A stretch of DNA of 64,000 bases from Gemmatimonadota bacterium (GCA_030747075.1 JASLLL010000001.1:78868-142867); one strand, 5' to 3'. Counted from the stretch's first letter, positions 29,226 to 63,165 are shown. Notes: generated by a model from the letters alone, not told the origin. Made by a program: numbers and translations.

Positions 29226-31667
29226 CTACTCTGTCGAAGGAGGAGGGGCCCGCGCCTCGCGCCGGGCGTCCAGCACATCCGGATCTCCGCCCTTTTCCAG
29301 ATAGAGGTCGAACAACGGGGCGGCCCCTTCGGGATCTTCGAGGAGAAACTCCCGCACAAGCCCCTGTGTCAGGTAGGGTTCGGGATTGCTCGGATCGGCC
29401 CGAGAAGCCCTCTGAAGGCTCGCGTGCGCCTCCTCACCCTTGCCCAGCATGGCCTGCGTGCGCCCCAGATACAGGAACACCCCCGGGAGGCGCGGTTCCG
29501 CCTCCGCCGCGCGCAGAAAGGCGTCCTCCGCACCCACCGCCTCTCCGGCCTCCAGCAGCAGCAGTCCCAGCCCGCGCGAGGCCTCCGGGCAGGCGTCTCC
29601 CCTCTCGAACAGCCTGCGATAAAGGTCGATGGCTGCCGCGACATTCCCCTTCAGCCGTGTCAGCTCCGCCAGGCGGTAATCCTCGTCGCTCTCGAAGCAC
29701 CCGCCCGCTCCGGCTTCACGAAGTCGCCCCAAATCCTCGATAAACAGCATGTAGCGTCCCATCTGGGCGCGTGCGGAGTCGTTGTGAGGTGCCTGCCAGC
29801 GGTCGTTGTACTCGCGGACCGCCAAGAACTCCCTGCGGGCTCCTTCCACATCTCCCAGCCAGAGAAGCTCCGCCCCCAGCGCGGAATGCCCGAGCAGGTA
29901 GCGAGGTTCCACGGCCACCGCCTGTCGAAGGGCTTCGGCCGCCTCTTCATGCCGCCCCAGTTCGGAGAGGATCACGCCCCGGTTGAACGGCGGGCGGTAG
30001 TAGTCGGGGTTGATCTCTTCCGCGCGGCGAATGTGCTCGAGCCCCTCCTCCAGTTGCCCCAGCCGCACCAGGTCCACTCCGAGATTCAGATGGCACTTGT
30101 CGTACTCGGGCTTCAGTTCGAGCGCGGATCGGTAGTGCTCCACGGCGGCCTCGTGGTCTCCTTCTCCGTCAGAGACGATGCCGTGCCGGTAGAGAATCTG
30201 CGCAATCCCCTTGCTTTCGTCCACGCCGTACACATTCGCGCTCATGAAGAGGCCGATCGCGACGGCACCCGCCACCGCACCCGCCCCCTTTGCCCAGGCC
30301 CGCGCCCGAGTCAGAGCGGCCAGTTCCACCAGCGCAACCCCCGCGAAGAGAACGAGCGCGGGCACAATGGGAAGCCGGTAGCGCGCCAGCACGAAGAAGA
30401 CGATCACGCTTGCGGAGTAGAACCCCACGAAGAGGTAGGGCAGCATCCATCGGCGACGACGACGCCAGGACAGCACCATCCCCAGTACGGCCAGCGGCCC
30501 GAGCACCAGGAAGGTGAACGCCGGCCCTCCAATGGCCCGGCTGAAGTGTCGGAAGTAGCCGAAGTGCTCGATCTGCGGGATCTCGTAGGTGGCCCAGAAG
30601 TGATACGCCTTCATGACCATGAGCGACATCCAACGCGCCGGGTCCCCCCCGATTGTGCGCAGCGTCTCCTTCAGGTAGAAGTCGTTGACCTCGGTAAACG
30701 AGAGCCTCCGGCCCGTGACCTTCTCCGCCTCGGTCCGGCACTCCACATCCTTGTGCAGGTCCGCGACGATCTGCCTCGTGACGGCGTGCTCCCCGACACC
30801 TTCCGTGACGAACAGCACAGGAGTCTCGTGGCCACCGCGTGCCATCGGGCCGTTGCCGATGTACAGGTTGAGTCCGCCGTTTGTCGTCAGGAGGGTGGGA
30901 TCGTCGGTCCGTGCGTTGTGGATCGTTGCGGGGGAGATGGCAAGAAGCGTTCCCGCCGTCAGTACGAGTGCGCCGGGCAGGCCGCGCCGGAGATTCGCGA
31001 GTGCGGGCGAAAACTCCCGGCCCCACGCACATGCCAGCCAGAGGAACGCCGCGGGAGCAAAGAGCAGAATGTTCCCGCGACCCAGCGCATACACGCCCAT
31101 GACGAACCCGGCGGCAAAGGCGTGCGACAGCGACGACCGGCGGGCTGCATCGTGCAGCAGCAGCAGAAGGGAAGCTGCGAGGAAGACGGTGAGGGTCGGA
31201 TAGAGAATCGAGGTGGAGTAGTAGATCAGCGGGCCGTAGAGCGCGACCATCGCGGAGCACGCCATCGCGAGATTCCGCCCGCCGAAACGGCGACCCAGAC
31301 CGTGCGCCACCACCACGGTCGCGACGGAAAGCCCAATCTGCAGAAAGCGCACCATCCATAACCCTGGCCCGAAGAAGTAGTGCACCAGCGCGAGAAGGTG
31401 CGGATAGAGCGGCCCCATGAAGTACGGATCGCTTCGCTGAATCCCTCCCGCCAGAATGGCGCCCGCCCAGTCTTCGTAGTACTTCGAGTCCAGCCCCAGA
31501 AAGTCGAACCAGGAGTGCGCACGCATCGAGTGCCAGTGAATCAGCCGAAGCGCGGACGCCACCAGTACCGCGCCCCACAACCACGACCGTTCGAGGAGGC
31601 TCGTGGGCGAACGGTCCGCCGGGGAGGCTGTGGGCGGGTTTTGGGTCGCTTTACTGGTCACCGTCAT
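29226..31667 (-). CDS. GT-C fold glycosyltransferase (PMT_2/ArnT-like) fused to C-terminal TPR repeats (TMTC-like), paralog of 16115..17878
   Basis: N-terminal ~450 aa form a multi-TM region with PMT_2-type features (GLDSKYYEDWAGAILAGGIQRSDPYFMGPLYPHLLALV). The C-terminal ~330 aa are TPR (ILYRHGIVSDGEGDHEAAVEHYRSALELKPEYDKCHLNLG...). Its start codon is 4 nt downstream of the YfhO-AlkP ORF stop. Confidence 0.75.
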   Translation of the reverse strand: MTVTSKATQNPPTASPADRSPTSLLERSWLWGAVLVASALRLIHWHSMRAHSWFDFLGLDSKYYEDWAGAILAGGIQRSDPYFMGPLYPHLLALVHYFFGPGLWMVRFLQIGLSVATVVVAHGLGRRFGGRNLAMACSAMVALYGPLIYYSTSILYPTLTVFLAASLLLLLHDAARRSSLSHAFAAGFVMGVYALGRGNILLFAPAAFLWLACAWGREFSPALANLRRGLPGALVLTAGTLLAISPATIHNARTDDPTLLTTNGGLNLYIGNGPMARGGHETPVLFVTEGVGEHAVTRQIVADLHKDVECRTEAEKVTGRRLSFTEVNDFYLKETLRTIGGDPARWMSLMVMKAYHFWATYEIPQIEHFGYFRHFSRAIGGPAFTFLVLGPLAVLGMVLSWRRRRRWMLPYLFVGFYSASVIVFFVLARYRLPIVPALVLFAGVALVELAALTRARAWAKGAGAVAGAVAIGLFMSANVYGVDESKGIAQILYRHGIVSDGEGDHEAAVEHYRSALELKPEYDKCHLNLGVDLVRLGQLEEGLEHIRRAEEINPDYYRPPFNRGVILSELGRHEEAAEALRQAVAVEPRYLLGHSALGAELLWLGDVEGARREFLAVREYNDRWQAPHNDSARAQMGRYMLFIEDLGRLREAGAGGCFESDEDYRLAELTRLKGNVAAAIDLYRRLFERGDACPEASRGLGLLLLEAGEAVGAEDAFLRAAEAEPRLPGVFLYLGRTQAMLGKGEEAHASLQRASRADPSNPEPYLTQGLVREFLLEDPEGAAPLFDLYLEKGGDPDVLDARREARAPPPSTE

Positions 31668-31673
31668 GGCTCC

Positions 31674-34600
31674 TTATTGAACATAACCGAGCGATCGGAG
31701 TTGCTCCTCCACGGATCGGTCGTTTCCGGTCGTGCCGGATGGCCGCGACTCCCCGGGTCGGCGCAGGCCGTCCGTCGGGGTCCCGGAGAAAACCACCGGA
31801 CGCGCGGCGATGCAACCCGAACGAAAGAGATGATCCGCCACACGGCCGGTGTATCGACCCGGAACCGCCTCTCCCAGCAGGTGGAGAACGGTTGGGGAGA
31901 TGTCCGCCAGATTCAGCTCCGCGCGAGCACCCGGCGCGAACGGCGGCCCTGTCGCCGCAAAGTACCCGACCCGTCGATGATAGCCCGAGAACACCTTTGG
32001 CGGAATCGGCACGACCACCGGACCGGCCGGATCCCACGGGATGAGGAGGAACCCCTCGGCTTCGATGGCGCAAACATCCGGCCCGACGCCCTGCCCGAAG
32101 CCGGTACCCGGCGTCCCGGCAAGGTCGTGAACTTCGCGGAAGAGGAGATTGCCACGAGGCCCACGCACTTCCCGAAGATGGCGGACGAACAGAGCGCGCG
32201 CCTCCGCATCCTTGCGCATGAGGTAGAACTCGCCGCCGAAGAGACTCCTCGATCCGGGATTCAGCTCCGCAACTTCCGGCGGGATTCCGGCCAGCAGTGC
32301 GTCACGCGAGATCCCCCGGTACGCCGGGCCGAACCCGTGGTCGGCCAGTACCACCAGTGCGGTTTCTTTCGGAAGGCGGTGGCGCACTTCGCCGAGAACC
32401 TCGTCGCACCATGCGTAAATGTCGCGGACCGCGGTGCGGAGAGGCTCGGGGGCGCCGGGATCGTGGCGGGGGTGCGCGGAATCGTGGAACTTCCAGAGGT
32501 GATGCTGAATGCGATCCGGCACCGTGAACACGATGAACGACAGGTCCGGCGATGCATCGAACAGAAGGTCCAGCCCGATCTCCCGACGCGCCTCCGCCTT
32601 TGCCCGAAGGTCCGCCAGCCACGACAGCTCCTGTCCCGGGGGAGGGAGCCCGGGAAGTTCGTCGCGCGGATATCCGGCCCCCGCCAGAGAGTCCGCGAGG
32701 GAGGGTGGCCAGGTGAGCGGCGCCCCCTCAGGATAGGGAAAGCCCGCGACCATGAAGCCGCGCACCGAGTCCGGCGGGCAGGTCACCGGCACATTGACGA
32801 CCCCCACCGTGCGGCCCGCAGACGCAAGATCCTGCCAGACGGTGGGCGCAAGGCGGTGGGTCGCGTCGATGTACGCGCCACGCGGGTCGCTCCGGTCATC
32901 GCCGACCACCCAGAACCCCCACACGCCATGCGCGGAAGGTTCGACGCCGGTCGTGGCCGTCGTCCATGCGGGCGGGGAAATCATGGGGAGCGTACTGCGC
33001 ACCCCCCCGGCCGCGCCCTCTGCCCGGAGGCGCGCGAAGTTCGGCAGGAGCCCTTCGGCTTCCATCTCCTCCACAAGCCCGGCATCCAGCCCGTCGAATC
33101 CGAGAACGAATACCGGCGCGGGTTTCGCGGCCTCCTGCGCCGCGTTTCCGCCGCACGCGCCCAGAAGGAACGGGAGCACAACGCACGCCGCCACCGACGC
33201 AACCCGGCGGCGCGGGATGCAAAGGAGCGCCCCGGCGGCAAGCAGCCCCGCGATCGAGAGAATGCGCCCCGCCCGCACCGGGATGGGATTGTAAACCATG
33301 CGAACCTCATGCTCCCCCGGCGGGACGACCACCCCGCGCACCACCCCGTACACGGGAAGCACGGGGGCATCGTCACCGTCGATCTCCGCGCGCCACCCGG
33401 GACTGTAGGTGTCCGCAAGCACCAGGAGCCGTTCAGCCGGGGCTTCCGTGACAAGTCTCACCTCGTTCCAGGAGTCGCGCATCATGCGAACCGTCCCGGC
33501 TTCGTCGCTCTCGCTCCCTTCCTCGCCTACGGATCCCACGCCCACCCAGTACGCTTCGCATCCGGGAGCGAACGCCCCCTCGGCAAGCACCGACTCCATT
33601 TCCAGTTCGGACACGCCGTGAGCGCGAGCCACCAGCCGCGCACGGGGAAGCGCCTCTTCGTTGACGAAGACGCGAAATCCCCCGCCCTTGATCTCACGCC
33701 ATCCGCGCGCCGAGAGAGTCTCGGTGCCGACCGCAGCGCGAACGGAAAGCGCATCGAGAACGGGATGCTCCATCGAAGACGCGCGCTCGGGCGCGAGAAT
33801 CCTCCGGCCCGACCAGATCCCGCCGGTGAAGAGTTCCTCCCCCAGCGCGGTCTCCAACGCGTCGCCAACACGACGCTCCGCCAGCGCGTTGTAGCCCTGC
33901 AGGTCGCGCAACCGGAACGGCACATTCGTCGAGGGAGGCAGCACGCCAGAGAGCTTCCCCGCGCGCGCTGCCGGGTGCCGCCCGAATCGGAGGAAGCGTC
34001 CGCCGCCCATGCCCTCGTCCTCCAGCACGCTTCGAAGCGCGGTGATGGACGGCGTCTCGACGAAGACCTCCGAAGGCAGCCGGTCTCCCCGGTAAGGCGC
34101 GGCCAGCGGGTAGAGTTGCACAAGAGCCAGCACGAACGGTGCGGCCGCGACGAGCGGCCGTGCGCCAAGGAGAAACGCGACGCCCGTTCCGGCCGCGAAG
34201 AGTGCCGCGGTGGTCGTCCGCGCGAGAACGGTCGTGGCAAACTCCACGGGGAGCGGCTCCCCCGCGCCCAGAAGAAGCGGAAGGTCCGCGCCCGCCCGAC
34301 GCACCAGCAGCCATCCACCCGCGGCCAGGAGTATCGTGCCGACGCCCGCGACGCGTCGCCAACGCCCATCCGCGCGAAGAAGATCCGCGGCGCCGTATGC
34401 GGCCAGCACGAACTGCGCGACGACCAACAGGTACCCGGCGCGATCCATCCGCGAGAACGAGAACCCGGGGAGGACGGCGTGCGCGAACCGGGCCGGCGGA
34501 GCGGCGAACGCAATCCCGGCAAACGCGACGAACACCGCCGCCCACGGCAGCGCGTCACGGCGCGTGCGGGGATTCGCCACAGCCCAGAGCGCCAGCAGGA

Positions 34601-35606
34601 ATACCGGCGTCGCGGCGGAGATGGTGTTGAGCTGGTGCCGCAGGTAGAAACCATCGCCGCGCGGGAAGAGAAGGCTCCACTCGTCTCCGGTGACGGGCGA
34701 ACCGAAGAAGTTCGGCACGAGGAAGCGGATGGCCTCCACCGGGTGCACGGAACCGGACGCAACCGTGGCAAAGGGCAGCGACGCGCGCGCGGACCGGGAC
34801 GCCAGATCCACGGTCGGGAGAAGTTGCGCGGCGGAGAGCAGGAAGGCCAGCACCCCCGCCGCCGCAAACGCCCCGAGGGTGGGGGCGAGTCGCGGGCGCT
34901 TCGCGGAGTCCGTCGGAAATGCGTACAGGACGATCAGGACCAGCAGGGTCGCATAGATCGTGTGGAAGAAGGTCTGTGGCTGCCCCGCCAGAAAGAGAAA
35001 CGCGCCGACCATGCCCAGCCATGCGCTCTCGCGAAGTCCGGGCCGCGCAAAGACCGAAAGCGCCGCCGCCAGAAACCACGGTGTCCAGGCCGCCGCCGCC
35101 AGAAAGGTCGGCTGGCCGAAGTGCTTGGCGAAGTACTCGTTCAGGCAGAAGGCCGCGGCAGCGCTCAACGCAACAAGCGGGGGGACGCGATGCCGGAGAA
35201 GCAGCAACATGCCCAGGCCGCCCCACGCCGCGTGCAGAAAGAGGAAGAGGCCGAGTTGCCGGGCGGGATCCATCGGGAAGAGCGCCCAGTTTGGGGGGTA
35301 GAGTACGCCTGCCTGCACATCGGCCAGAAACGGCGTGCCCCCGAAGGAGTACGGATTCCAGAGCGGCACTTCGCCGTCCTTCCACGCCGCATGGAGCACG
35401 GCGCGGCGCGGGTAGTACGAGAGGTTGCAGTCCGGGTTGTGCGAAGGGGACCCGACGCTCTCCTTCGGCCCTTCGACTCCCCACGGCAGCCAGCGGTCCA
35501 TCCCGCTCGTCACGGCAACGCGGCCGCCGAAAAGTTCCGGGGCAAAGAACACCGCCGCGAGCACCACGACGACCATGCCGGAGAGCACCAGACGACGGCG
35601 GGTCAT
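31674..35606 (-). CDS. YfhO-like polytopic membrane glycosyltransferase fused in-frame to a C-terminal alkaline-phosphatase-superfamily (type I phosphodiesterase/NPP-like) domain
   Basis: The 1453-aa ORF begins with a ~143-aa Arg-rich non-protein-like extension. The real start is the internal Met MTRRRLVLSGMVVVVLAAVFFAPELFGG at ~35606, which overlaps the upstream gene's stop (ATGA). Residues ~144-890 are YfhO-like (many TM helices; NPYSFGGTPFLADVQAGVLYPPNWALF; terminal TM ILSIAGLLAAGALLCIPRRR). With no stop codon they continue into VASVAACVVLPFLLGACGGN... and an NPP/AlkP-like domain (PVFVLGFDGLDAGL...LPNFARLRAEGAAGG...LPMISPPAWTTATTGVEPSAHGV...LADHGFG), ending ...EEQLRSLGYVQ. The domain junction is near 33357. 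Confidence 0.65.
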   Translation of the reverse strand: MTRRRLVLSGMVVVVLAAVFFAPELFGGRVAVTSGMDRWLPWGVEGPKESVGSPSHNPDCNLSYYPRRAVLHAAWKDGEVPLWNPYSFGGTPFLADVQAGVLYPPNWALFPMDPARQLGLFLFLHAAWGGLGMLLLLRHRVPPLVALSAAAAFCLNEYFAKHFGQPTFLAAAAWTPWFLAAALSVFARPGLRESAWLGMVGAFLFLAGQPQTFFHTIYATLLVLIVLYAFPTDSAKRPRLAPTLGAFAAAGVLAFLLSAAQLLPTVDLASRSARASLPFATVASGSVHPVEAIRFLVPNFFGSPVTGDEWSLLFPRGDGFYLRHQLNTISAATPVFLLALWAVANPRTRRDALPWAAVFVAFAGIAFAAPPARFAHAVLPGFSFSRMDRAGYLLVVAQFVLAAYGAADLLRADGRWRRVAGVGTILLAAGGWLLVRRAGADLPLLLGAGEPLPVEFATTVLARTTTAALFAAGTGVAFLLGARPLVAAAPFVLALVQLYPLAAPYRGDRLPSEVFVETPSITALRSVLEDEGMGGGRFLRFGRHPAARAGKLSGVLPPSTNVPFRLRDLQGYNALAERRVGDALETALGEELFTGGIWSGRRILAPERASSMEHPVLDALSVRAAVGTETLSARGWREIKGGGFRVFVNEEALPRARLVARAHGVSELEMESVLAEGAFAPGCEAYWVGVGSVGEEGSESDEAGTVRMMRDSWNEVRLVTEAPAERLLVLADTYSPGWRAEIDGDDAPVLPVYGVVRGVVVPPGEHEVRMVYNPIPVRAGRILSIAGLLAAGALLCIPRRRVASVAACVVLPFLLGACGGNAAQEAAKPAPVFVLGFDGLDAGLVEEMEAEGLLPNFARLRAEGAAGGVRSTLPMISPPAWTTATTGVEPSAHGVWGFWVVGDDRSDPRGAYIDATHRLAPTVWQDLASAGRTVGVVNVPVTCPPDSVRGFMVAGFPYPEGAPLTWPPSLADSLAGAGYPRDELPGLPPPGQELSWLADLRAKAEARREIGLDLLFDASPDLSFIVFTVPDRIQHHLWKFHDSAHPRHDPGAPEPLRTAVRDIYAWCDEVLGEVRHRLPKETALVVLADHGFGPAYRGISRDALLAGIPPEVAELNPGSRSLFGGEFYLMRKDAEARALFVRHLREVRGPRGNLLFREVHDLAGTPGTGFGQGVGPDVCAIEAEGFLLIPWDPAGPVVVPIPPKVFSGYHRRVGYFAATGPPFAPGARAELNLADISPTVLHLLGEAVPGRYTGRVADHLFRSGCIAARPVVFSGTPTDGLRRPGESRPSGTTGNDRSVEEQLRSLGYVQ

Positions 35607-37162
35607 CGCGGACCCCCGTCGGTTCGGCGAAGTGCGGTTCGCAGCACTGCGGTCCACTCGCGCTCCGCGACGCCGTCTTCGCTCAGGAGCCTGACGGCGC
35701 GGGCGTCGTTCCCGGCGGCCGCCTCCGCGCCGGCGAGCATCCACGCCGCGTGGTGCGCTCCGGCAACCGGGAGGTGTCGCGCCGAACCGAACACGCGTGC
35801 GACACCGAGATGGCGCGGCCCCGGAAGCACATAGACCCCGGCGACCAGCGGCCACGCGCGCACCCACAGGAGAAGCACCACCGTCGCGACCACGACCGAG
35901 CGCCGGAGTATTCCGCGCTCCCGGATTCTCCGGGCGGCAGCGACCGCCGCCACCGCGAGAATGGGAACGAGCGGTTGATGCATTCGCGAGTGCCCGTACA
36001 CGACCATGTGGACGACGAAGTAGACCGCGACCCACGACACCGCCAGCGAACGAAACCGTGACCGCCGCATGGCGGCCAGCCCCACGGGGCCACCGATGAG
36101 GAAAACCACCGACGCCGCCAGCGTGAGAAGCGAAAGCGCGACCGCCGCGCCCGGCGACACCGGCCCGTACCAGTCGCGAAGAAGGTGGCGCGGCAGGAAG
36201 AAATCAGGCGACCAGAACGCCGCCGCCTTCCCCGGCGCGCGAAGCAGGGCGGCGGCCGGGTCCCGCGCCACTTCCTCCATGGCCCGCGCGCGGTACCATC
36301 GGTCGCGGGCAATCCGGGCATCTTCGCCGCGCCCCGCGCCATCGGCGGCCATGCGCCGCTCCACATCTTCCCGCCAGCGCGGATCGGACAGCGGCACGCC
36401 CACGCCATTCCCGGGCGCAAGCCCCACCGACCAGAGCGCGGGCAGCCCTTCGCCCAGGTAGCGGTTGTGCCCGCTCCACAGGTTGAATCCGCCGTTTGCG
36501 TCGATGAGAACGGGTTCGCCCGCCCTCCCGCTGGCGTGCAGGCTCCACGGCGCCACGATCACCACGCCCGCGGCCAGGAGGGCACCCGCGCAGAGGAGGC
36601 GACGACCGCGCGGAGCGGACGCGGCAAGCCACACGGCACTCACCGCGAGAAGCGCAAGCCCCGTCGACCGGGTCAGCGCCGCCGCGCCCAGCAGCGCGCC
36701 CGCCCCGGCCGCGCGAAACGCCCCGCCGCGTCGCGACGCCGCCGGTAGCAACGCGAACGCCGCCAGCGCGAGGAATCCGTAGAGCGTCTCCGACCATAGA
36801 AGATGCGAGAAGGCAATGTGCGACGGATGAAGCGCGACGAGCGCGGAGGCCGCGAGTGCCCCGCGAGTGCCCAGCGGACGACGCGCGACGCGCCACACGA
36901 GCGCCACCGTTCCGACACTCAGGAGCGCCTGAAGAACGCGCACGCCCACGGCCTGCCCGCCGGAGAGCAGAAGCCCCGCCGCCGTGAACCACTGGTAGCC
37001 GGGTGCCCGCCAGAGCGCCGGGCCGCCTTCATCCGAAGCGATCCGGGCGCCGTAGGACAGGAACTCGGTCTCGTCGTAGCGGGGTGTGAGGTCCGCAAAG
37101 AAAACCGCGAGGGCCACGCGAAGGACCAGCGCCCCCGCGAGAATCCCGGCGAGTCCTCTCAC
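35603..37162 (-). CDS. ArnT/PMT_2-like GT-C fold membrane glycosyltransferase (no TPR)
   Basis: About 12 TM helices with ArnT/PMT_2-like N-terminal features (LTPRYDETEFLSYGARIA...LHPSHIAFSHLLWSETLYGF). The first ~99 aa of the 618-aa ORF are not protein-like. The likely start is an in-frame GTG at ~37162 that overlaps the GT2 stop (GTGA), giving MRGLAGILAGALVLRVALAVFF. Confidence 0.7.
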   Translation of the reverse strand: MRGLAGILAGALVLRVALAVFFADLTPRYDETEFLSYGARIASDEGGPALWRAPGYQWFTAAGLLLSGGQAVGVRVLQALLSVGTVALVWRVARRPLGTRGALAASALVALHPSHIAFSHLLWSETLYGFLALAAFALLPAASRRGGAFRAAGAGALLGAAALTRSTGLALLAVSAVWLAASAPRGRRLLCAGALLAAGVVIVAPWSLHASGRAGEPVLIDANGGFNLWSGHNRYLGEGLPALWSVGLAPGNGVGVPLSDPRWREDVERRMAADGAGRGEDARIARDRWYRARAMEEVARDPAAALLRAPGKAAAFWSPDFFLPRHLLRDWYGPVSPGAAVALSLLTLAASVVFLIGGPVGLAAMRRSRFRSLAVSWVAVYFVVHMVVYGHSRMHQPLVPILAVAAVAAARRIRERGILRRSVVVATVVLLLWVRAWPLVAGVYVLPGPRHLGVARVFGSARHLPVAGAHHAAWMLAGAEAAAGNDARAVRLLSEDGVAEREWTAVLRTALRRTDGGPR

Positions 37163-37887
37163 CGATTGCCCCGAAGAACGATGCTCACCCACATGCTCGC
37201 AATCTCGCGAAGCGTGGAAAGCACATGGCTCGGGCGAACCGTGGACTCTCCCGCTTCGCGCGGGAAGTGCCGCACGCCGATTTCGGTCATGCGCATCTTC
37301 TGGCGCGAGGCCTTTGCGAGAATCTCCGTGTCGACGAAGAACTTGTCCGACTCGATGTGGATCGTGTCGAACACTTCGCGGCGGAAGAGCTTGAAGGCAC
37401 AGTCCACATCGCGGACGCGGATGCGGAAGAGAATCCGCACAAGCAGGTTGTACCCCCACGACAGGATGAGCCGGGAGAGGGGGTCGAACCGGTAAATGCG
37501 AAAGCCGCAGACGATCTCGTAGTCGTCGATGGCGGCCAGGAAGTTCTTGATCTCGCGAATGTCGAACTGGTTGTCCGCGTCGGTGTAAAACACCAGCGGC
37601 ATGGCGGCCCCGCCGAACCCGGTGGCCAGCGCCTTCGCATAACCCCGGTTGGTCTCGTGAACAAGCGTTCGCAGTTTCGGGACTTCCTCGCGAAGACCTT
37701 CGAGAATCTCTCCGGTGCGGTCGGCGCTTCCATCGTCCACAACGATGACTTCGTAATCCTCGAAGCGGAACTCCCGCAGCACGGAGTCTACCGAGCGCAC
37801 CTGCCGCTCAATGCTCTCTTCTTCGTTGTACGCGGGAAGAACCACCGAGATCTTTCGCCCGACACCGGGCGGGGGTCTGTCAGCCAA
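37159..37887 (-). CDS. GT2-family polyprenol-phosphate sugar transferase (DPM1/CsbB/GtrB-like)
   Basis: ISVVLPAYNEEESI...YEVIVVDDGSADRT...NRGYAKAL...DADNQFD, with a C-terminal amphipathic/TM tail. This is typical of the GT2 enzymes that make polyprenol-P-sugar donors for GT-C transferases. Confidence 0.85.
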   Translation of the reverse strand: MADRPPPGVGRKISVVLPAYNEEESIERQVRSVDSVLREFRFEDYEVIVVDDGSADRTGEILEGLREEVPKLRTLVHETNRGYAKALATGFGGAAMPLVFYTDADNQFDIREIKNFLAAIDDYEIVCGFRIYRFDPLSRLILSWGYNLLVRILFRIRVRDVDCAFKLFRREVFDTIHIESDKFFVDTEILAKASRQKMRMTEIGVRHFPREAGESTVRPSHVLSTLREIASMWVSIVLRGNR

Positions 37888-39625
37888 GGTACCCGATCCC
37901 CCGAAGCCGGTTGCGGATCTCCTCCCGCTCCGACTCGCTCATGTGATGATCCTCGCCGGTGCCGCCCTCCCCCGCCGGGGGGGCGCCACGCACCGGACGC
38001 TCCTTCATTTCGGCTTCCGTGAACACACTTTCCAGCACACGCCCGTCAAAGTCCGACGGAATCCCCAGGCCCAGATGGTGGAGGATCGTCGGCGCGACAT
38101 CCAGAAGCCGTCCGCCCCGGAGCACCGCTCCCCGGCGAACCCCGTCGCCCGCCGCGAAGAAGATCCCGTTCATCCGATGGTCTCCTGAGTTTCCGTACAC
38201 CGGTTCGATGAATCGGTTCGAGGTAAAATCCACCGTACCCAACGCCTTGTTCCGCATGTCCACAGGAAGGAAGGTGATCTCCGGCGCACGGTGGACGAAC
38301 GGGCCGTCGTAGAGGTCCCCGGCGCGGTGAATCTCCCCGATGAGCGGTTCGCCGGTATTCGGGTCCTGAAGCGCCCGCAGTTCGCGGATGACTTCTTCCG
38401 TCACGCGCTCCGCCTCTTCGCCCGGCTCCACCGACCCGCTCGGTTCGCGGCCCCGCAGGTTGAGGAAGATCTGCCCGTAGTTCCCCTTGGAGTAGGCCGT
38501 GCTCCGCGACCAGTCCACATCGTCCAGCGACAGGAACACGCGATTGATCCGGCGAAGGAGACGCACGCGCGTCCCCACGCCCGAGGCAAGGCGCATCCGC
38601 GCGAACCCGAGCTTCATGGAGATCCGGTAGCCAAGCGCGGGGGTGAGTCCCATCTCGAAGAGCGCGCGCCGGGCAAAGGTCAACAACCCCGGCTTCAGCC
38701 GCAGGAACCCCTTCTGCAACAGCCAGACATTGAACACGAAGAAGCGATGGATGGGGCCGAACCCGTGGTCGGAGAGCACCACGGTGGTCGCGTCCGGGGC
38801 GGCCGCCATCCACTCGCCGACGACGGCGTCCACGCGCCGGAAGTAGTCCACGCACCGGTCGCGGCAGATCAGCGCCTCCGCGGGGTCGTGCTCCGGGTGG
38901 CTCGGGTCGAGAATGTGCCAGAGTTCGTGGCCGAAGCGGTCCGTGCCCCAGACATGGAGCATCGCGAAGTCCCACTCCTTCTCCGTCAGAAGCCAGTGGT
39001 ATGCGCGACGGTTCGCCTCCAGCACGCGGTCCAGTTCATCGAGCACCGGGGCGGCGTTCCCCTTTCGGTACACCTCGACATGATAGAGCTGGTAGGGACC
39101 GGTCGCTTCCTCGATCTCGGCGAGCAGTTCCGGCGGCCAGGTGAAGTCGCGGTTTCCCATCGGCGTGAGGAAATCACCCACGAGATTCCCGCGCACCGGA
39201 GACGGCGGGTAGGTGACCGGCACGCCGACGACCAGCACCTTCTTCCCCGCCTCGGAGAGAATCTCCCACAGCGTCTTCCCCGCGCGGGCAGCGGAGTTCA
39301 CGGGGACTTCGTCAAAGCTCCCCGGCTCGCGGAGAAAGAACTCGAAGACGCCATGCCGCCCGGGGTTCTTGCCGGTCATGAAGGAACACCACGCGGGCGC
39401 GGTCACCGGCGGAATGATCGATTCCAGCGGACCGGACACGCCCTCGTCGCGGAGCCGCGCGAGATTCGGCATGGTGCCGTCGTCCAGCCACGGCCCGATC
39501 AGATCCAGTGTGGCGCCGTCGAGCGCGATGGCGAGAACGCGGCGGGACACGACTATTCCGGCTGGAGGTACACGGGGCTCGACCAGGCCATCCCCCCGTA
39601 CTCGTCCATGCCGCGCAGGTAGCAC
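37880..39625 (-). CDS. Alkaline-phosphatase-superfamily protein (type I phosphodiesterase/nucleotide pyrophosphatase-like), paralog 2
   Basis: VLAIALDGATLDLIGPWLDDGTMPNLARLRDEGVSGPLESIIPPVTAPAWCSFMTGKNPGRHGV (Thr nucleophile, PF01663-like); LSDHGFG; C-terminal tail ...EEIRNRLRGIGYLG. No signal peptide. An alternative GTG start at ~39550, 4 nt after the DUF3604-like gene's stop, would remove the 72-nt overlap. Confidence 0.75.
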   Translation of the reverse strand: MLPARHGRVRGDGLVEPRVPPAGIVVSRRVLAIALDGATLDLIGPWLDDGTMPNLARLRDEGVSGPLESIIPPVTAPAWCSFMTGKNPGRHGVFEFFLREPGSFDEVPVNSAARAGKTLWEILSEAGKKVLVVGVPVTYPPSPVRGNLVGDFLTPMGNRDFTWPPELLAEIEEATGPYQLYHVEVYRKGNAAPVLDELDRVLEANRRAYHWLLTEKEWDFAMLHVWGTDRFGHELWHILDPSHPEHDPAEALICRDRCVDYFRRVDAVVGEWMAAAPDATTVVLSDHGFGPIHRFFVFNVWLLQKGFLRLKPGLLTFARRALFEMGLTPALGYRISMKLGFARMRLASGVGTRVRLLRRINRVFLSLDDVDWSRSTAYSKGNYGQIFLNLRGREPSGSVEPGEEAERVTEEVIRELRALQDPNTGEPLIGEIHRAGDLYDGPFVHRAPEITFLPVDMRNKALGTVDFTSNRFIEPVYGNSGDHRMNGIFFAAGDGVRRGAVLRGGRLLDVAPTILHHLGLGIPSDFDGRVLESVFTEAEMKERPVRGAPPAGEGGTGEDHHMSESEREEIRNRLRGIGYLG

Positions 39626-41055
39626 CAGGTCGGCTCGGTGACCGGGAGCGTCTCGGCCGTGATCTCCACGACATCGATGTCCTCGCCTTCCGGCATGAGC
39701 GCGGCGATCGGCCCGTCCGGCCCGACGACCTCGATCCGCATCCAGCGCGTCATCGACCCGAGCGAACCGTAGATGGCCGCGACATGGCCACTCGGCACGC
39801 GAAGGTCCGAACCCATCTGGTGCCCGTCGACGGTGAACTCCAGCAGGTAACGACGGCCGGAGGTGGCGTAGCAGCGACGCTCACGAAGCGCGTCCAGCAC
39901 GGCCTCGCGGGTCAGTTCCTTTGCGAGAACGGCGGTCAGCCCGACAGGCCAGATGCTGTCCCCGGTGCGAATGCCCATGGGGTTGCCGGGTTGCGTCGAG
40001 CGAATGTCCCCGGTGCCGATGAAGCCCACGCGCGCCCCGGAGGCGAGAAGGTCCTTCGCGTAGGGACCGGGCGCGTCTCCGGTGTCCGGCGGGCGCGGAA
40101 GCCCGGCCGATTCAAACATCCCGAGCGACGAAACCACTTCCACCAGCCCCTCCCGCGACGGGGCTACGGAGGCGGGATCCACGGCGGGACGCGTCGTGGT
40201 TCCGGGCGGGTGCGGCACCGCGAGGATGGCACCGTCAGGAAGCGCGGCGGCGAGTTTCTCCGGTGTGTCGAATCCGGCCGCGTTCGACCACAACCGCTCC
40301 GGCGGCCCCGGGAGAAGCACGAGGCGATCCCCATACTCCCCGGACGCCCAGCGGAAACCATGCAGCGGGATGAAGTCTCCCGGGCGGTGGAGATCGTCGA
40401 GGACGCTGCCTTCGATCTCCATCCACGCCTCTTCGTCGAGCGCCTTTTCGATGGACGCGTCATAGTCCGAATCCGTCAACGCCGCGAAGTCCAATAGCCC
40501 CACGCCGCGCGCGTACCAGAAATAGACGGCGGGCGCGTGGTTCCCCGCGCCGAGGTCGCTCACGCCGCTCAGGTCACCCCAGTAGATCCGGTAGTCGGGA
40601 TCCGTCTGGACGACGAAGGCGTTCGCTTCCGCCGACACGGTGTCCTCCGGAACGAGGCCGCGCAGGTTCTGTACGCCCGGAAGCTCAAAGACGAGGCCTT
40701 CCATCAGGTAGAAACCGTCTTCGTCCGGCTCCCAGGAAGCGCGGTCCATCTTCTGGAACGGGTTCTCGGCGGAGGCTTCCACGCGAAACCCGCCTTCGAA
40801 GTCGTAGTCCGGCGCGCCAACCTGCGTCACGACGCGCATCTTGAGGTCGACTTCTTCGCCCGCCTTCACGATGGACGGGATCACGAGATGGACATAGGTA
40901 CCCACTTCCGTCACGGGCACGGAGGGGCCTGCCGATTCGGTTCCGCCCTCCGACGGGACGGCGGCATCCTCGGTGCCTTTGCCGCATCCGGGGAGAAGGA
41001 GAGCCAGCGCGACGAGCCATGCCGTCGCGACGGTTGTTGTTCCACCGTGCATCAT
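39553..41055 (-). CDS. Lipoprotein, DUF3604-like (my family assignment is uncertain)
   Basis: Lipoprotein signal (LVALALLLPGCG). No catalytic motif I can recognise; the segments RCYATSGRRYLLEF and AVPHPPG are reminiscent of DUF3604/PHP-like secreted proteins. Coding potential looks good throughout. Confidence 0.5.
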   Translation of the reverse strand: MMHGGTTTVATAWLVALALLLPGCGKGTEDAAVPSEGGTESAGPSVPVTEVGTYVHLVIPSIVKAGEEVDLKMRVVTQVGAPDYDFEGGFRVEASAENPFQKMDRASWEPDEDGFYLMEGLVFELPGVQNLRGLVPEDTVSAEANAFVVQTDPDYRIYWGDLSGVSDLGAGNHAPAVYFWYARGVGLLDFAALTDSDYDASIEKALDEEAWMEIEGSVLDDLHRPGDFIPLHGFRWASGEYGDRLVLLPGPPERLWSNAAGFDTPEKLAAALPDGAILAVPHPPGTTTRPAVDPASVAPSREGLVEVVSSLGMFESAGLPRPPDTGDAPGPYAKDLLASGARVGFIGTGDIRSTQPGNPMGIRTGDSIWPVGLTAVLAKELTREAVLDALRERRCYATSGRRYLLEFTVDGHQMGSDLRVPSGHVAAIYGSLGSMTRWMRIEVVGPDGPIAALMPEGEDIDVVEITAETLPVTEPTWCYLRGMDEYGGMAWSSPVYLQPE

Positions 41056-41090: not shown

Positions 41091-42422
41091 TCAGTCGAGA
41101 TACCCCAGTGCGCGAAGCCGGGACACAATCTCCGCGTCCACCGGGGAGGCAACGGGCGCCCCTCCGCGCTCTCGATCCACTTCCGGCTCCCAGGAGGGAA
41201 TCTCCTGAACGGGATGTCCAAAGAGGTGTTCCTCTTCGAAGAGATCCAGCGCGGGGCTTCCGTCCATGTCCGTCGCCACCGGCAGCCCGGAAGCATAGAG
41301 GAGGGTTGGCGTGAAGTCGACCACCGACGCCGGGGGCAGAAGGCCTTCGCGGAGCCCCGGCCCGTCACTGAGAAGAATGCCGCTGGAGCGATGCCACCCG
41401 GAACTGGTGGCTCGCGCGGGGTCGCGGTTTTCGCGAAACCCGTGGTCCGACAGAATAAAGAGCCGCGTGGGCTCCTCCTCGCGGGCGAGGACGCCGGTGA
41501 GGATATCGTCGACGGAGCGGTACGCGCTCTCGATGCTGAGTCCGTAGGCCGCCACTTCGGCGGGGTCCACCTTGCCGAGAGCGTAGGTGTCCGGCTCCAT
41601 GTACTTCCAGAACCGGTGACCCACGACATCCACCGACCCGAAATAGAGAAACTCCACATCCGCGCGTTCCGCCGGCTGTGAACGGTCCGCAAGGTGGTGG
41701 TAGATGCGTTCGTAGGTGCGGTCGCTGGCCCACGACCAGCGCATGCCCTCCAGCGATCGGGCGGCGTCGGGCGATGGCGCACGGGGAAGGGGAACGCCGG
41801 TGAAGCGCGCGGCGAGTTCATGGTCGCCAATGGAATCGGGGCGCGTCTTCAGCGCGGACAGCTCCTCTTGAAGCCCGGGCGGCCAGACTTGATCGCGGAT
41901 GCCTTCGACGAAGGTGCCCTTCAGCGGACGGCTGGCCTTGTCGCCGCTCCATCCCGCAAAAAAGGGCGTGTACGAAGAGATCATCACGCCATTCACCGGC
42001 TCCGCGGGCCAGGTGGCCAGCCAGCCGTACACGCCCACCGTGCGATCGCGTGCGGAGAGGATGTTCCAGGCAGCGGCGACGCGGCGCTGGTTGGAGGTGA
42101 CAGGCTGAATGGAGCCGTCTTCGCCGCGCGTCACGAAGTGGTGGATGCCGTGGCGCTCGGGGAGGACGCCGGTGGCGGCGGTGGTCCAGATGGTGGGCGA
42201 GAGGCGCTCGGGAATGAGCGACACGAGCGTTCGCCGGGAACCCGTGCGGAGGATGCGCTTCATGGCGGGGAGCTTCCCCTGCCGCACGAGCGGGAGCGCG
42301 CGGTCCCAGTCCGCGCCGTCGATCCCGAAGACGATGACGCGCGGGGCGGGGTTGTCGCCTCCACCGGAACATCCGGCCGCGAAGAGGAGCGCGGCGGCGA
42401 GCGGAAGCGACAAGCGCCTCAC
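41091..42422 (-). CDS. Alkaline-phosphatase-superfamily lipoprotein (type I phosphodiesterase/NPP-like), paralog 3
   Basis: The likely start is a GTG overlapping the glyS stop (GTGA), giving [21 protein letters not shown] (lipobox). RVIVFGIDGADWD...LVSLIPERLSPTIWTTAATGVLPERHG (Ser nucleophile); LSDHGF; C-terminal tail ...AEIVSRLRALGYLD. Confidence 0.75.
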   Translation of the reverse strand: MRRLSLPLAAALLFAAGCSGGGDNPAPRVIVFGIDGADWDRALPLVRQGKLPAMKRILRTGSRRTLVSLIPERLSPTIWTTAATGVLPERHGIHHFVTRGEDGSIQPVTSNQRRVAAAWNILSARDRTVGVYGWLATWPAEPVNGVMISSYTPFFAGWSGDKASRPLKGTFVEGIRDQVWPPGLQEELSALKTRPDSIGDHELAARFTGVPLPRAPSPDAARSLEGMRWSWASDRTYERIYHHLADRSQPAERADVEFLYFGSVDVVGHRFWKYMEPDTYALGKVDPAEVAAYGLSIESAYRSVDDILTGVLAREEEPTRLFILSDHGFRENRDPARATSSGWHRSSGILLSDGPGLREGLLPPASVVDFTPTLLYASGLPVATDMDGSPALDLFEEEHLFGHPVQEIPSWEPEVDRERGGAPVASPVDAEIVSRLRALGYLD

Positions 42423-44514
42423 GCGGCGCCACGCTCCGGAGGGGAGATCCTCGACAGATCCGCAAGCCCGGCGAAGCGGTCCGCGATGCGCCCGAGAAGC
42501 CGGAGGCGGTTCCGGCGGACGGCATCGTCGTCGGTGAGGACCATGACGGAGTCGAAGAAGTGGTCGATGGGTCCGCGAAGGCTGGCCAGCCCGGCGAGCG
42601 CTTCCGCGTAGCGGCACTCCTCTTCGGCGCGGCCGACTTCCGCGTCCACCGCGGCGAACGCGTCGAAGAGGGCGGTCTCGGCGTCTTCGGTGAGAAGATC
42701 GCGCTCCGGGGCGCCTTCGGCCGACTCCTTCTTCAGAATGTTCCGCGCGCGCTTGAACCCGGCGGCAAGGGCCTCGAAGTCATCGCGGCTCGTCCTCCGC
42801 ATGGCGGTGAGCGCTTCCGTGCGCGCGCGCGCATCCACGGGATTCCCGCCGGAGGACGCGACGACGGCGGCGGCCACATCGGCATCGAACCCTTCTTCCG
42901 CGAGATGCCCGGCCAGCCGGTCGCGCACGAAGGCGGAGGCTTCCGCGACGACGGTGTCCGGATCCGCAAGGAGGCCGCCGTAGAGATCCGCGGCGGCGCG
43001 GATGAGTGACCCGACGCGCTCGGCGAGATTGCGGTCGAGGAGGATGCGGATGACGCCGATCGCCCCGCGGCGGAGCCCGTGGGGATCCTTCGATCCGGTG
43101 GGCTTCAGCCCGGCGCCCCAGACTCCGACGAGCGTGTCGATCCGGTCCGCAAGCGCAATCGCCGCTCCGGCGGGGGACGCGGGAAGCCCGTCTCCGGCGT
43201 GGCGCGGGAAGTACTGCTCCTCGATGGCGGCGGCGACCTCGTCCGGTTCGCCGCACGCGCGCGCGTATTCCTTTCCGATGGTGCCTTGAAGCGCGGTGAA
43301 CTCCTTGCCGTCACGGATCATCTCCGTGGTGAGGTCCGTCTTGGAGAGAAGCGCGGCGCGATCGGTGGTCTGTTCGGCGTCGGGGAAGTGCGCCGAGGCG
43401 ATGGACACGGCAAGCTTGCGCACGCGGTCCGTCTTGTCACCGAGTGATCCGAACCCGCGCAGCCAGACGATGTCCGCAAGCCGGGGGACTTTCTCCTCCA
43501 GCGTGGTGCGGCGATCCTCCGTCCAGTAGAACCGTGCGTCGTCGAGGCGCGCGCGGAGAACGCGTTCGTTGCCGTCGCGCACCTGCGCGGGGTCGCCCGG
43601 CTCTCCGTTCAGCACGCAGAGGAACCGGGGCAGGAGCTTTCCGTCCGGCCCGGCGACCACGAAGTACCGCTGGTGCGAACGCATGGCGGTGCGAATCACG
43701 ATCTCGGGAAGCCGGAGGAACTCGTCGTCGAAGGAGCCGGTGAGCGCGTGTGGCGTCTCCACAAGGCAGGCGACCTCCTCAACGAGCGCGGCATCCGGCA
43801 CGAGGGTCCCGCCCGCGTCGCGAGCGGCGTCCGCGAGAAGCGCCGCGATCCGCTCTTCGCGAAGGGCTGCGTTCGGCACCACGCGCCCCTTCGCGAGGGA
43901 ATCCGCGTAGTCTGCGGGGGAGCGCATCTCGAACGGACCGGGGCCGAGCAACCGGTGACCGAAGGTCGCGCGGCCGGTCTGGACACCTTCGATCGAAAAG
44001 GGCACGACCTCCCCGCCCAGAAGCGCCACCAGCCAGCGGATGGGCCGGGCGAAACGGAAGCGGTCCGGCCCCCAGCGCATCGTCTTCGGAAAGACGATCG
44101 CGGCCGTGGCCGCGGGGAGTGCTTCGGCCAGAAGGTCCGCGGTGCGCCGCCCGGGAGTGGTGACGGTCGCGCCGACATACGGCCCCTTCTCCGTCTCCAC
44201 CTTGACGAGGTCGGCGACGGCCAGCCCGCGGCCCTTCGCGAACCCTTCCGCCGCTTTCGTCGGGGTGCCGTCCCCGGCAAAGGCGGCCTTCCACGGCGGA
44301 CCGGTGACCTCTTCCACGCGATCCTCCTGCGACTCCGGGAGACCGGTGATGGAAAGCGCGAGGCGGCGCGGGGTGTAGTCGACGGAGAGGCTGCGGAAGG
44401 GGAGCGCCGCGCCGGTCAGGAACGCGCGCACCTCCGACTCCAGCCCGCGCGCGGCGGGAGCCAGGTAACCGGCGGGAATCTCTTCGGTACCGATCTCGTA
44501 GAGCAGGTCGGCGT

Positions 44515-44518
<4 letters not shown>
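42419..44518 (-). CDS. glyS: Glycine--tRNA ligase beta subunit
   Basis: [26 protein letters not shown]... is a typical GlyS N-terminus, with similarity across the whole length. It is immediately downstream of glyQ with a 4-nt overlap. Confidence 0.9.
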
Positions 44519-45393
<875 letters not shown>

Positions 45394-45585
45394 GGTCCGG
45401 CTCCTCCGAATGGCGAGGGAGTATAGCGGAATCCGGCGGTGTGGGAAGAGGCGCGTGGGGGGTGCCGGAACCGGCCAGGCGACCGCGCGCGGGAAGGCCC
45501 GCAACCGCAAGCCGGGTGCGCCGTGAGGCGGGCGTGAGGAATCGGCAGCCTTGTCGAAGCGACCGGGGCAGACTAGACTGGTGCC

Positions 45586-53498: not shown

Positions 53499-53670
53499 CT
53501 GAGAGGAAGTAGCCTGCCCCCGGCTCCCTGATACAGAAATCCCGCTCCGGGCTTCATTTTTTCCGACCCCTGCGCAAGCCCACCGGGCGAGGGCCGACGC
53601 GCAAGCCCACCCCCTCCGATCCGCCCCTCCGTCTCGCATGGCGGCCAGGGGCGGGTGTGTGGATATTACT

Positions 53671-53699
53671 TGACAGTGTGACCCGCTACTGCTAAATAT
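53671..53699 (+). promoter_or_regulatory. Putative sigma-70 promoter for the 148-aa hypothetical gene
   Basis: TTGACA, a 17-nt spacer, then TAAATA. It lies within the GC-poor ~285-nt divergent region between the CHAT gene and the hypothetical gene, followed by GGAGGG (SD) and an ATG at ~53783. Confidence 0.4.
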
Positions 53700-53782
53700 C
53701 CGCACTGGTCGCGTCTGTTTGTGTGCCCCACGCGAGAGACTTGGCTATTTGGCGCATTTTCCTGCGATCCGGAGGGTTCCCC

Positions 53783-54562: not shown

Positions 54563-54596
54563 TCCAGCGCATTGAGACACCCCCGGGAGCCCGCAC

Positions 54597-62915: not shown

Positions 62916-63165
62916 CCTGTCCTCCTCCGATAGGTGTTCTCTTCCGTCATCGATCTCTCGGGGGCGTTTCTTGAGCCGGGAGAGGGTACCGCACGCGGTG
63001 CCGCGAGTCCAAGAGAGACGCTCCTTTGGAATGGCGCGGCGGCCGGTCTTCGGGCTAGACTGCTCGCCGGACTGTGATGAGGCCGAATCGGGCGACCTTT
63101 CCCTTATCCGCAACGCCCGCACCGCCGAAACTCTGGAGAGCCACTTCCGCGGAGGGAACCGCCCC

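Follow-up and report, generated by a model that had tools for sequence, protein, structure and literature searches.

A 64,000-nucleotide stretch of DNA from a Gemmatimonadota bacterium (GCA_030747075.1, JASLLL010000001.1:78868-142867), referred to below as the window, was analysed with regard to a set of alkaline phosphatase (AlkP)-like proteins and the short C-terminal peptide, here termed the LGY tail, that several of them share. The window is of high GC content (about 66%) and its source is a marine bacterium. Four AlkP-like paralogues lie in the window and a fifth lies beyond its end, making five in all. The open reading frames (ORFs) of the four and the tails found on them are as follows (NPP, nucleotide pyrophosphatase/phosphodiesterase; GT-C, glycosyltransferase of fold type C).

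37880..39550, minus strand: paralogue 1, AlkP/NPP-like; no signal peptide, Thr nucleophile, LGY tail; PF01663, 132.8 bits
37883..37933, minus strand: LGY tail of paralogue 1, SEREEIRNRLRGIGYLG
41091..42422, minus strand: paralogue 2, AlkP/NPP-like lipoprotein; lipobox LFAAGC, Ser nucleophile, LGY tail; PF01663, 74.8 bits
41094..41144, minus strand: LGY tail of paralogue 2, PVDAEIVSRLRALGYLD
31674..35606, minus strand: YfhO-like membrane protein, putatively GT-C, in frame with paralogue 3; Ser nucleophile, LGY tail; PF09586 and PF01663 (98 bits)
31677..31727, minus strand: LGY tail of paralogue 3, GNDRSVEEQLRSLGYVQ
63031..64000, plus strand: N-terminal part of paralogue 4, AlkP/NPP-like; membrane-anchored, Ser nucleophile; PF01663, 54 bits

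The PF01663 matches of the four ORFs (132.8, 74.8, 98.2 and 54 bits) were all above the gathering cut-off of 23 bits. Pairwise identity among paralogues 1-4 is 32-34%, which places the duplications far back in time. The longest ORF of paralogue 1 runs to 39625; the true start is most likely at 39550, since the protein is 100% identical to a database protein (P0001) of 556 residues. The longest ORF of the fusion occupies 31674..36035 (minus strand); its first 143 codons (35606..36035) are Arg-rich and overlap the PMT_2 gene at 35603..37459, and the most probable start is the ATG at 35606, where the overlap with the upstream stop codon is 4 nt. The AlkP domain of paralogue 3 spans about 31674..33116 and is preceded by a lipoprotein-like segment from 33203. 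The ORF of paralogue 4 (63166..>64000, plus strand) extends past the window end; its N-terminus consists of a hydrophobic anchor followed by a basic cluster. As enzymes, the four are unremarkable representatives of a known superfamily.

The three complete ORFs end in REEIRNRLRGIGYLG, DAEIVSRLRALGYLD and SVEEQLRSLGYVQ, each followed directly by the stop codon; the pattern common to paralogues 1-3 is ...L-[RK]-x-[LI]-G-Y-[LV]-x-stop. When all six frames of the 64 kb were scanned, L[RK]x[LIVM]GY was found at three sites only, each beginning 8 codons before the stop of a tailed ORF, and a relaxed pattern applied to the called genes gave a single further match, which is internal and unrelated. The observation of the tail is correct and is not a product of chance. 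The DNA of the three tails is 38-63% identical and uses different codons for the conserved L, G and Y, from which it follows that the conservation lies at the protein level. A DNA-level repeat or terminator was ruled out on this identity, and recent duplication as the source of the tail was ruled out on the differing codons and the distance between the paralogues. An earlier note on this sequence had described four paralogous type I phosphodiesterase-like proteins with different N-terminal targeting, three of them sharing an LRxLGY(L/V)-type C-terminal tail. The Pfam scores confirm the family, the targeting does differ (none, lipobox, YfhO-like fusion and hydrophobic anchor in paralogues 1-4, respectively) and the six-frame scan recovers the tail.

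Conservation and portability of the LGY tail

A consensus of about 16 residues, S-P-[VE]-D-E-E-[IL]-[RLK]-E-R-L-[RK]-[SAG]-L-G-Y-[ILV]-x, was derived from 236 non-redundant tails; G and Y are constant in this set because the selection pattern required them. Both the tail and the adjoining residues are acidic, with D/E at positions -14, -13, -12 and -9; the L at -7 is 94% conserved, and exactly one residue follows GY[ILV] in 206 of the tails (87%). A segment of similar form (helix, Gly, aromatic and hydrophobic residue) occurs internally in these enzymes: N-x-W-L-x-x-x-G-[YF]-L-x-L lies right behind the SDHGF metal motif at 38700..38830 in the window (residues ~270-285 of paralogue 1), with the examples NVWLLQKGFLRL, NLNAWLLEHGYLAL and HLNTWLREHGFLKL from paralogue 1 and from paralogues 4 and 5 on the contig L085 described below.

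The tail was present in about 117 of 120 orthologues of paralogue 1 (49-74% identity), that is, in essentially all of the full-length ones; those without it included one truncated entry and one with a different C-terminus. These relatives mostly end ...EEIRxRL[RK]GxGY[LVI]G, their source names being Eisenbacteria, Gemmatimonadota, Blastocatellia and other Acidobacteriota, and L548, G552 and Y553 of paralogue 1 were invariant in a 43-sequence alignment. For paralogue 2 the motif was found in 120 of 120 homologues (33-65% identity). It lies at most four residues from the C-terminus in 102 of them and is internal in the other 18, which include fusions of AlkP to tetratricopeptide repeats (TPRs); there the motif stands exactly at the junction and marks the end of the AlkP module. 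In the alignments of both paralogues the L, G and Y of the tail are invariant or nearly so, and the core averages 34-63% column identity. Conservation across phyla at 33-74% identity means that the tail is more than the trace of a recent duplication.

The gene order of the window recurs on another Gemmatimonadota contig (L081), where glyQ, glyS, an AlkP lipoprotein, a DUF3604-like gene, AlkP, a family 2 glycosyltransferase (GT2), PMT_2, YfhO-like, AlkP and PMT_2 with TPRs follow one another and the tail is kept on all three AlkP proteins. In Blastocatellia, as in Gemmatimonadota, the GT2 gene adjoins the orthologue of paralogue 1, which still carries its tail. The alignment with database homologues and the search for the motif beside this operon type elsewhere, both proposed in the earlier note, thus came out in favour of the tail: it is conserved far beyond the copies in this genome, and the same operon with three tailed AlkP proteins exists in a second one. 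The wide conservation also bears out the proposal that the motif is a functional element shared by differently targeted paralogues.

Paralogue 4 was completed on a Tara Oceans contig (L085), located by exact-sequence look-up of the sulfotransferase at 62289..62915. The contig is 100% identical to window positions 62001-64000 and continues past the window end. The complete protein has 766 residues, ends ...DHMDGKALFGADRFGGKKKGGGA / ...APDHMDGKALFGADRFGGKKKGGGA (GGKKKGGGA) and is without an LGY tail. Orthologues 70-81% identical over the available fragment were collected from 80 genome loci; 75 of the 76 complete ORFs among them also lack the tail and end shortly beyond ...HMDGKxLF, the exception being a fusion to a second AlkP domain. 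The earlier note had named a missing tail on the extended fourth paralogue as an outcome that would speak against its reading, and this is the outcome found. A homologue search with a 200-residue fragment of paralogue 4 returned only fragments of up to 349 residues, it seems through a bias for length, and is silent on the C-terminus.

The gene that follows paralogue 4 on L085 encodes the fifth PF01663 paralogue (667 residues, with a signal peptide and the degenerate end ...KERLESVGYASGKD). It is followed by a gene for a 64-residue protein, MFGSNRVKLDKDLIEKVKKYAEIAGYSSAEEFITHALEKELAQLEGADSEEEIKKRLQGLGYIS, with a canonical LGY tail, and then by one for a 279-residue membrane protein. A weak match to NikR (E = 0.13) and the sequence pattern hint that the 64-residue protein is ribbon-helix-helix (RHH)-like. 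It was found in 13 of the 80 loci, which come from other phyla, with varying amino acids and always directly after the paralogue-4-like and second AlkP genes. Scans with Pfam and NCBIfam gave no model match for the tails or for this protein, and a phmmer search of the PDB with the 64-residue protein gave nothing. The region L085:4476-10627, which continues the window, forms with 62289..64000 a conserved module comprising a Sulfotransfer_3 gene divergent from paralogue 4, paralogue 5, the RHH-like gene and that of the 279-residue protein. In Acidobacteriota the same AlkP pair clusters with ATP sulfurylase, a tailed adenosine 5'-phosphosulfate (APS) kinase, a CysQ-like phosphatase and a tailed sulfatase-like lipoprotein; such clusters suggest a sulfation pathway dependent on 3'-phosphoadenosine 5'-phosphosulfate (PAPS) and built around AlkP-fold enzymes.

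Carriers of the tail were sought in two ways. The first was a scan of ORF ends in the 80 loci (2,354 ORFs, 200 codons or longer) with a loose end pattern; 41 from several families matched, about 39 of them convincingly and at least one by chance. Pfam assigned the tailed ORFs to PF00884 (sulfatase family, several with lipoprotein signals), PF01583 (APS kinase) and PF01663. The APS kinase and the sulfatase-family proteins carry the tail as an addition, attached through a linker past the end of the canonical fold, and the tailed APS kinase adjoins three tail-less PF01663 genes. A profile of 30 columns, built from 49 tails taken from the window and from the homologue-search sequences, was in addition run against 1.84 billion representative proteins. 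It gave 75 matches at E <= 1e-3, almost all of them ending 0-3 residues from the C-terminus: 23 belong to PF01663 and six to PF00884, and the majority of the remainder are short fragments from the C-terminal ends of proteins of these families. The profile also matched small RHH-like proteins, one of which has two tandem tails, as well as a TPR protein and a family of ~640 residues. Tandem double tails with acidic spacers are present in the small proteins P0379 and P0396. The ~640-residue proteins (P0362, P0363, P0365, P0367, P0372, P0375, P0381, P0387, P0393, P0398, P0421 and P0426) carry the N-terminal motif D-x-L-R-x-x-L-R-x-L-G-Y-L-D-A-G-V-D-R-F(-V-L-G) and a second motif after a C-terminal AlkP domain. 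Rough hydropathy and the positive-inside rule suggest about five transmembrane helices, with the N-terminal copy cytoplasmic and the C-terminal copy periplasmic.

The tail is therefore not confined to the AlkP-like enzyme family, a point missed by the earlier note. It is a portable and apparently undescribed module with a wide distribution among Acidobacteriota, Gemmatimonadota and Eisenbacteria-like lineages; it is covered by no Pfam or NCBIfam model, and full-text literature searches on the motif, COG3379 and the phyla returned nothing relevant. A profile search of the PDB with the tail gave no significant match, the best related one being the native C-terminus of the APS kinase 7yq0 (E = 0.34). 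This solved 175-residue enzyme (7yq0/7yq1) natively ends ...EEEVEAVLKKLMELGYL; in the tailed APS kinases of the loci, a comparable last helix of the native protein, ...KIVRSLELMGLL, precedes the extra canonical LGY tail. The tail may have originated by duplication of a terminal helix of the APS-kinase type, or the likeness may be coincidental.

Catalytic domains and operon context

The nucleophile of paralogue 1 is Thr, PPVTAPAW aligning with the catalytic Thr of phosphonoacetate hydrolase (PhnA); in the others it is Ser, as seen among the homologues of paralogue 2, in the orthologue of paralogue 3 and in paralogue 4. The contexts in the four paralogues are VTAPAW, LSPTIW, ISPPAW and VSPVAW. 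Residues D10, T49, D203, H207, D260, H261 and H457 of paralogue 1 were invariant among 43 orthologues, as were D35, S75, D265, H269, D326, H327 and H344 of paralogue 2 among 52 homologues. Both families retain all ligands of the two-metal site (Asp, Ser/Thr nucleophile, Asp-x3-His, Asp-His and His), the residues having been assigned to the metal sites from the PhnA alignment and general knowledge of NPP. The earlier proposal that the Thr/Ser difference reflects sub-functionalisation between phosphodiesterase and sulfatase/phosphatase-like chemistry holds in part. The split is real and lineage-stable, and sub-functionalisation as a lineage-specific trait is plausible, but it gives no indication of sulfatase chemistry, because the formylglycine motif (C/S)-x-P-x-R is absent from all four paralogues (no Arg at +4, no Cys) and because Ser and Thr nucleophiles are both ordinary in the AlkP superfamily. 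Ser versus Thr by itself does not separate phosphodiesterase from phosphatase chemistry.

AlphaFold2 (AF2) models of paralogues 1 and 2 have NPP-like folds with predicted local distance difference test (pLDDT) scores of 90 and 91, respectively. A Foldseek search of the PDB matched Xac NPP (E = 3.8e-16) as well as ENPP1/3 and PhnA, with E values of about 1e-16 overall. The C-terminal extension of paralogue 2 (residues 403-443) was modelled with a pLDDT of 84-97 and the linker and tail helix of paralogue 1 with 73-82 (about 81 for the helix, residues 538-550). The models suggest that the ordered extension packs against the catalytic domain.

The other annotated genes that bear on the paralogues are given below.

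29226..31667, minus strand: PMT_2 GT-C glycosyltransferase with C-terminal TPR array; same position in L081
35603..37459, minus strand: PMT_2-family GT-C glycosyltransferase; PF13231, 51.9 bits; same position in L081
37159..37887, minus strand: GT2 glycosyltransferase; PF00535; resembles ArnC, PgfS and polyprenyl-phosphate hexose transferases
39553..41055, minus strand: DUF3604 / CehA-McbA-like (PHP-type) metallohydrolase; PF12228, NF038032; between paralogues 1 and 2
62289..62915, minus strand: Sulfotransfer_3-family sulfotransferase; PF13469, 29.6 bits; divergent from paralogue 4

The best NCBIfam matches of the GT2 protein were ArnC, PgfS and a Dol-P-hexose transferase, all below the cut-offs. 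The L081 orthologue of the DUF3604-like metallohydrolase carries a lipobox. Exact copies of the sulfotransferase were found on 14 public contigs. In the N-terminal half of the fusion PF09586 scored 31.5-31.7 bits against a cut-off of 28.5, matching only the last 72 of 835 profile positions, and the L081 orthologue had no Pfam match. The junction between the YfhO-like and AlkP parts (33116..33210 in the window) contains no stop codon and is read in one continuous frame, and the lipoprotein signal VASVAACVVLPFLLGACGG is retained there. In L081 the two halves are separate genes for a protein of 879 residues and a lipoprotein of 531 residues, the latter being 55% identical to paralogue 3 and ending QLRALGYVQ; by this comparison of the two sequences the YfhO-like::AlkP fusion appears specific to the present genome.

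The operon is thus made up of one GT2, three GT-C (the YfhO-like one putative), a PHP-type hydrolase and three tailed AlkP proteins (one cytoplasmic and two exported). Judged from its gene content, it looks like a system for polyprenyl-phosphate-sugar dependent modification of an envelope glycoconjugate with processing of phospho groups. The genes glyQ and glyS (glycyl-tRNA synthetase alpha and beta; 42419..45510, minus strand) lie directly upstream on the strand of the AlkP/glycosyltransferase operon, in the same order as in L081. Elsewhere in the window, an AbiEi-like antitoxin and an AbiEii nucleotidyltransferase toxin (54576..56406, plus strand) form a type IV pair that is also present on other contigs of the organism, and a CHAT-domain (caspase-like) protein (52647..53744, minus strand; PF12770, E = 3.6e-35) has neighbours without a Pfam match.

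Candidate functions of the tail

With the motif, its conservation, its portability and its position as the observed basis, the explanation that we tentatively favour, at somewhat less than an even chance, is docking of the tail on AlkP-fold domains, either in cis or in trans; both this function and the receptor are inferred. A docking peptide is probably the best of the three options that the earlier note had offered, the others being a sorting signal and an active-site lid. Docking on AlkP-fold domains in particular is preferred because AlkP carriers predominate, because the non-AlkP carriers adjoin tail-less AlkP genes and because the extension is ordered in the AF2 models. Portability of the kind that marks a tethered docking peptide was found, the tail occurring in PF01663, PF00884, PF01583, TPR-containing and 64-residue RHH-like proteins. 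S/T-P-x-D-E-E is a typical helix N-cap, and L-x-x-h-G-Y (h, hydrophobic) fits a Schellman helix C-cap with a hydrophobic C3, Gly C' and a hydrophobic C''. The tail would accordingly form a capped unit in which an acidic N-cap (S/T-P-x-D-E-E) is followed by a three-turn amphipathic helix ([IL]-x-E-R-L-[RK]-x-L), a Schellman-type closure (Leu C3, Gly C', Tyr C'') and a short hydrophobic hook. In paralogues 1-3 this unit might pack in cis or be swapped between subunits or paralogues, stabilising or assembling the enzymes, while the non-AlkP carriers (APS kinase, the 64-residue RHH-like protein and the cytoplasmic N-terminus of some membrane AlkPs) would dock in trans on tail-less AlkPs such as paralogue 4. 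The enzymes would be Ser/Thr-nucleophile two-metal phospho(di)esterases or phosphotransferases, with an envelope glycoconjugate on which they act together with the polyprenyl-phosphate GT2 and the three GT-C proteins.

Several points weigh against docking on AlkP-fold domains. The census profile was built from AlkP tails and hence favours AlkP carriers, and a contact between tail and AlkP domain is indicated indirectly, through the pLDDT values of the models alone. The ~640-residue proteins carry copies on predicted opposite sides of the membrane, which fits a compartment-independent function, for example association of tails with one another, equally well. The linker before the tail helix varies in sequence, as in tethered peptides that bind other partners. 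Finally, an LGY-like string natively ends the solved APS kinase 7yq0 (the match at E = 0.34), and helix-LGY strings occur inside unrelated repeated helical domains (P0382, P0395 and P0410), so part of the pattern is generic helix capping.

Four rivals were weighed, ranked in the order homotypic association, another hub (TPR), structural cap and, as the least likely, a targeting signal. Were the tails to bind each other as a helix-turn-strand mini-oligomerisation unit, carriers could be clustered in any compartment without a dedicated receptor. This would account for the occurrence of tails on unrelated folds and on either side of the membrane, in some cases in a single protein, and for the tandem double tails of P0379 and P0396; in Mnt and NikR, moreover, an RHH DNA-binding domain is known to precede a C-terminal helix for oligomerisation. 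We consider it rather unlikely, however, as a helix of three turns is too short to form a stable coiled coil readily, AF2 monomers give the tail high confidence without a second copy, and the predominance of AlkP-fold enzymes (>90% of the classifiable carriers) is left unexplained. The tail could instead be a tethered linear motif that docks on a common non-AlkP hub, for example the TPRs of the PMT_2-TPR protein (29226..31667), and recruits enzymes to a membrane glycosylation machine, a reading close to the docking peptide for a common partner that the earlier note had proposed. Its portability across families, the constant spacing of one residue that separates it from the free C-terminus in 87% of tails, the fusions that place the motif directly before TPR arrays and the conservation of the TPR-bearing GT-C in the operon are all in keeping with such a hub. 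A single hub is nevertheless insufficient for carriers that are both cytoplasmic and periplasmic. The motif in the fusions is too near the first TPR helix for an obvious cis ligand, the Blastocatellia loci have a tailed AlkP and a GT2 with no adjacent TPR protein, and no candidate partner is common to all of the loci examined; a common hub is thus held to be improbable.

If the tail were only a structural cap, it would be the last element of the fold of an AlkP sub-clade with no separate function, and the other carriers would have converged on a Schellman-capped helix. The ordered AF2 models, the canonical C-cap sequence L-x-x-h-G-Y, the similar string at the end of the solved APS kinase and the internal N-x-W-L-x-x-x-G-[YF]-L segment are consistent with this. 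Against it, the tails of the sulfatase-family proteins and APS kinase lie beyond the canonical fold end on linkers, close PF01663 sub-clades (paralogue 4) fold without a tail, and a 16-residue signature (S/T-P-x-D-E-E...R-L-R-x-L-G-Y-h-x) is common to PF01663, PF00884, APS kinase and RHH-like carriers in the same neighbourhoods, which makes convergence unlikely; little probability is accordingly given to a cap without further function. A sorting, secretion or membrane-targeting signal (of the sortase/exosortase type, for a type I secretion system, as an encapsulin cargo peptide or as a MinD-like amphipathic anchor) is highly improbable. The earlier note had suggested a sorting signal from the extreme C-terminal position on proteins with different N-terminal targeting, and the tail outwardly resembles the cargo peptides of encapsulins (LxIGSLK) and amphipathic anchors at protein C-termini. 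However, no transmembrane helix, basic cluster or other hydrophobic segment follows the motif; it is found alike on lipoproteins, the destination of which is already set, and on carriers without a signal peptide (APS kinase, RHH-like protein and paralogue 1); and it is internal in the AlkP-TPR fusions and N-terminal in the membrane proteins. No encapsulin, sortase or exosortase gene was found among the annotated genes of the window or the related loci, and helical-wheel reasoning gives the helix, together with its flank, a net acidic character and a narrow hydrophobic face, in contrast to helices that target membranes.

Individual candidates of this kind were set aside as follows. A sortase, exosortase or rhombosortase signal was rejected because in 206 of 236 tails GY[ILV] is followed by a single residue, and no hydrophobic segment comes after it. 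For encapsulin cargo, no Linocin_M18 match was found in the annotated window and loci (the whole genome was not searched), and paralogues 2 and 3 carry lipoprotein-type export signals. The acidic character, the narrow hydrophobic stripe and the tightly conserved L, G and Y argue against a membrane anchor of the MinD/FtsA type. A type I secretion signal was dismissed on the same grounds as the other targeting signals, and a Tyr-sulfation site is not indicated, the context of the Tyr being basic or hydrophobic rather than acidic.

Docking on AlkP-fold domains can be extended to a more speculative scheme, to which we attach only a small probability. The LGY tail would here be a docking code specific to the AlkP-fold enzymes of Acidobacteriota, Gemmatimonadota, Eisenbacteria and related uncultured lineages. 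Tail-less AlkPs (paralogue 4) would act as receptors that recruit the PAPS-making APS kinase, AlkP/sulfatase-like enzymes and the RHH-like regulator into membrane-associated assemblies. Much as an antitoxin does, the RHH-like protein would sense unoccupied docking sites and so couple the transcription of envelope sulfation/glycosylation genes to the occupancy of the enzymes.

The tail is sharply defined and recurs in both AlkP Pfam families and in unrelated proteins of phyla that are almost entirely uncultured. As a docking or assembly peptide it would provide a handle on which of the paralogues annotated as 'alkaline phosphatase family protein' act together, would link AlkP paralogues to PAPS synthesis and GT-C envelope glycosylation, and would be a small transplantable tag for pull-downs. 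If it is a fold-capping helix only, the finding shrinks to a useful family signature.

Comparison with known systems

The catalytic domains belong to the NPP/PhnA branch of the AlkP superfamily (Xanthomonas NPP, 2gsn/7n1s; PhnA, 3szy/1ei6), with which they share PF01663, the fold, the two-metal ligands and the position of the nucleophile. The paralogues are only 13-17% identical to any solved structure and have large insertions, such as one of about 75 residues that follows SDHGF in paralogue 1, and the solved relatives gave no significant match to the LGY tail in the PDB profile search. The gene set of the operon is similar to that of three-component glycosylation, in which CsbB/GtrB (GT2) acts with YfhO or with an ArnT/PMT GT-C (lipoteichoic and wall teichoic acid, Arn lipid A and Streptococcus Pgf); the shared parts are an ArnC/PgfS-like GT2, a YfhO-like protein and two PMT_2 GT-C proteins. 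It differs in that the NCBIfam matches of the operon are far below the equivalog cut-offs and in having, in between, three AlkP-like enzymes, one of them fused to the YfhO-like protein, and a PHP-like hydrolase.

With the cargo-loading peptides of family 1 encapsulins (LxIGSLK-like) the tail shares a short C-terminal L-x-[IL]-G-x-[LI] core on diverse enzymes. The tail has an invariant Tyr in place of Ser and in some proteins lies internally or at the N-terminus; of the carriers in the window, two out of three are of the periplasmic lipoprotein type, and there is no shell gene in the annotated regions. The C-terminal tip of SSB, the C-terminal peptide of FtsZ and the toxin-binding tails of RHH antitoxins are likewise short conserved C-terminal peptides behind a variable linker, although to our knowledge the LGY tail is unrelated to them in sequence. 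Like these docking peptides, it is portable between unrelated proteins, including a small RHH-like protein in which it is the only other feature; it differs from them in that the extension is ordered rather than disordered in the AF2 models and is used on both sides of the membrane.

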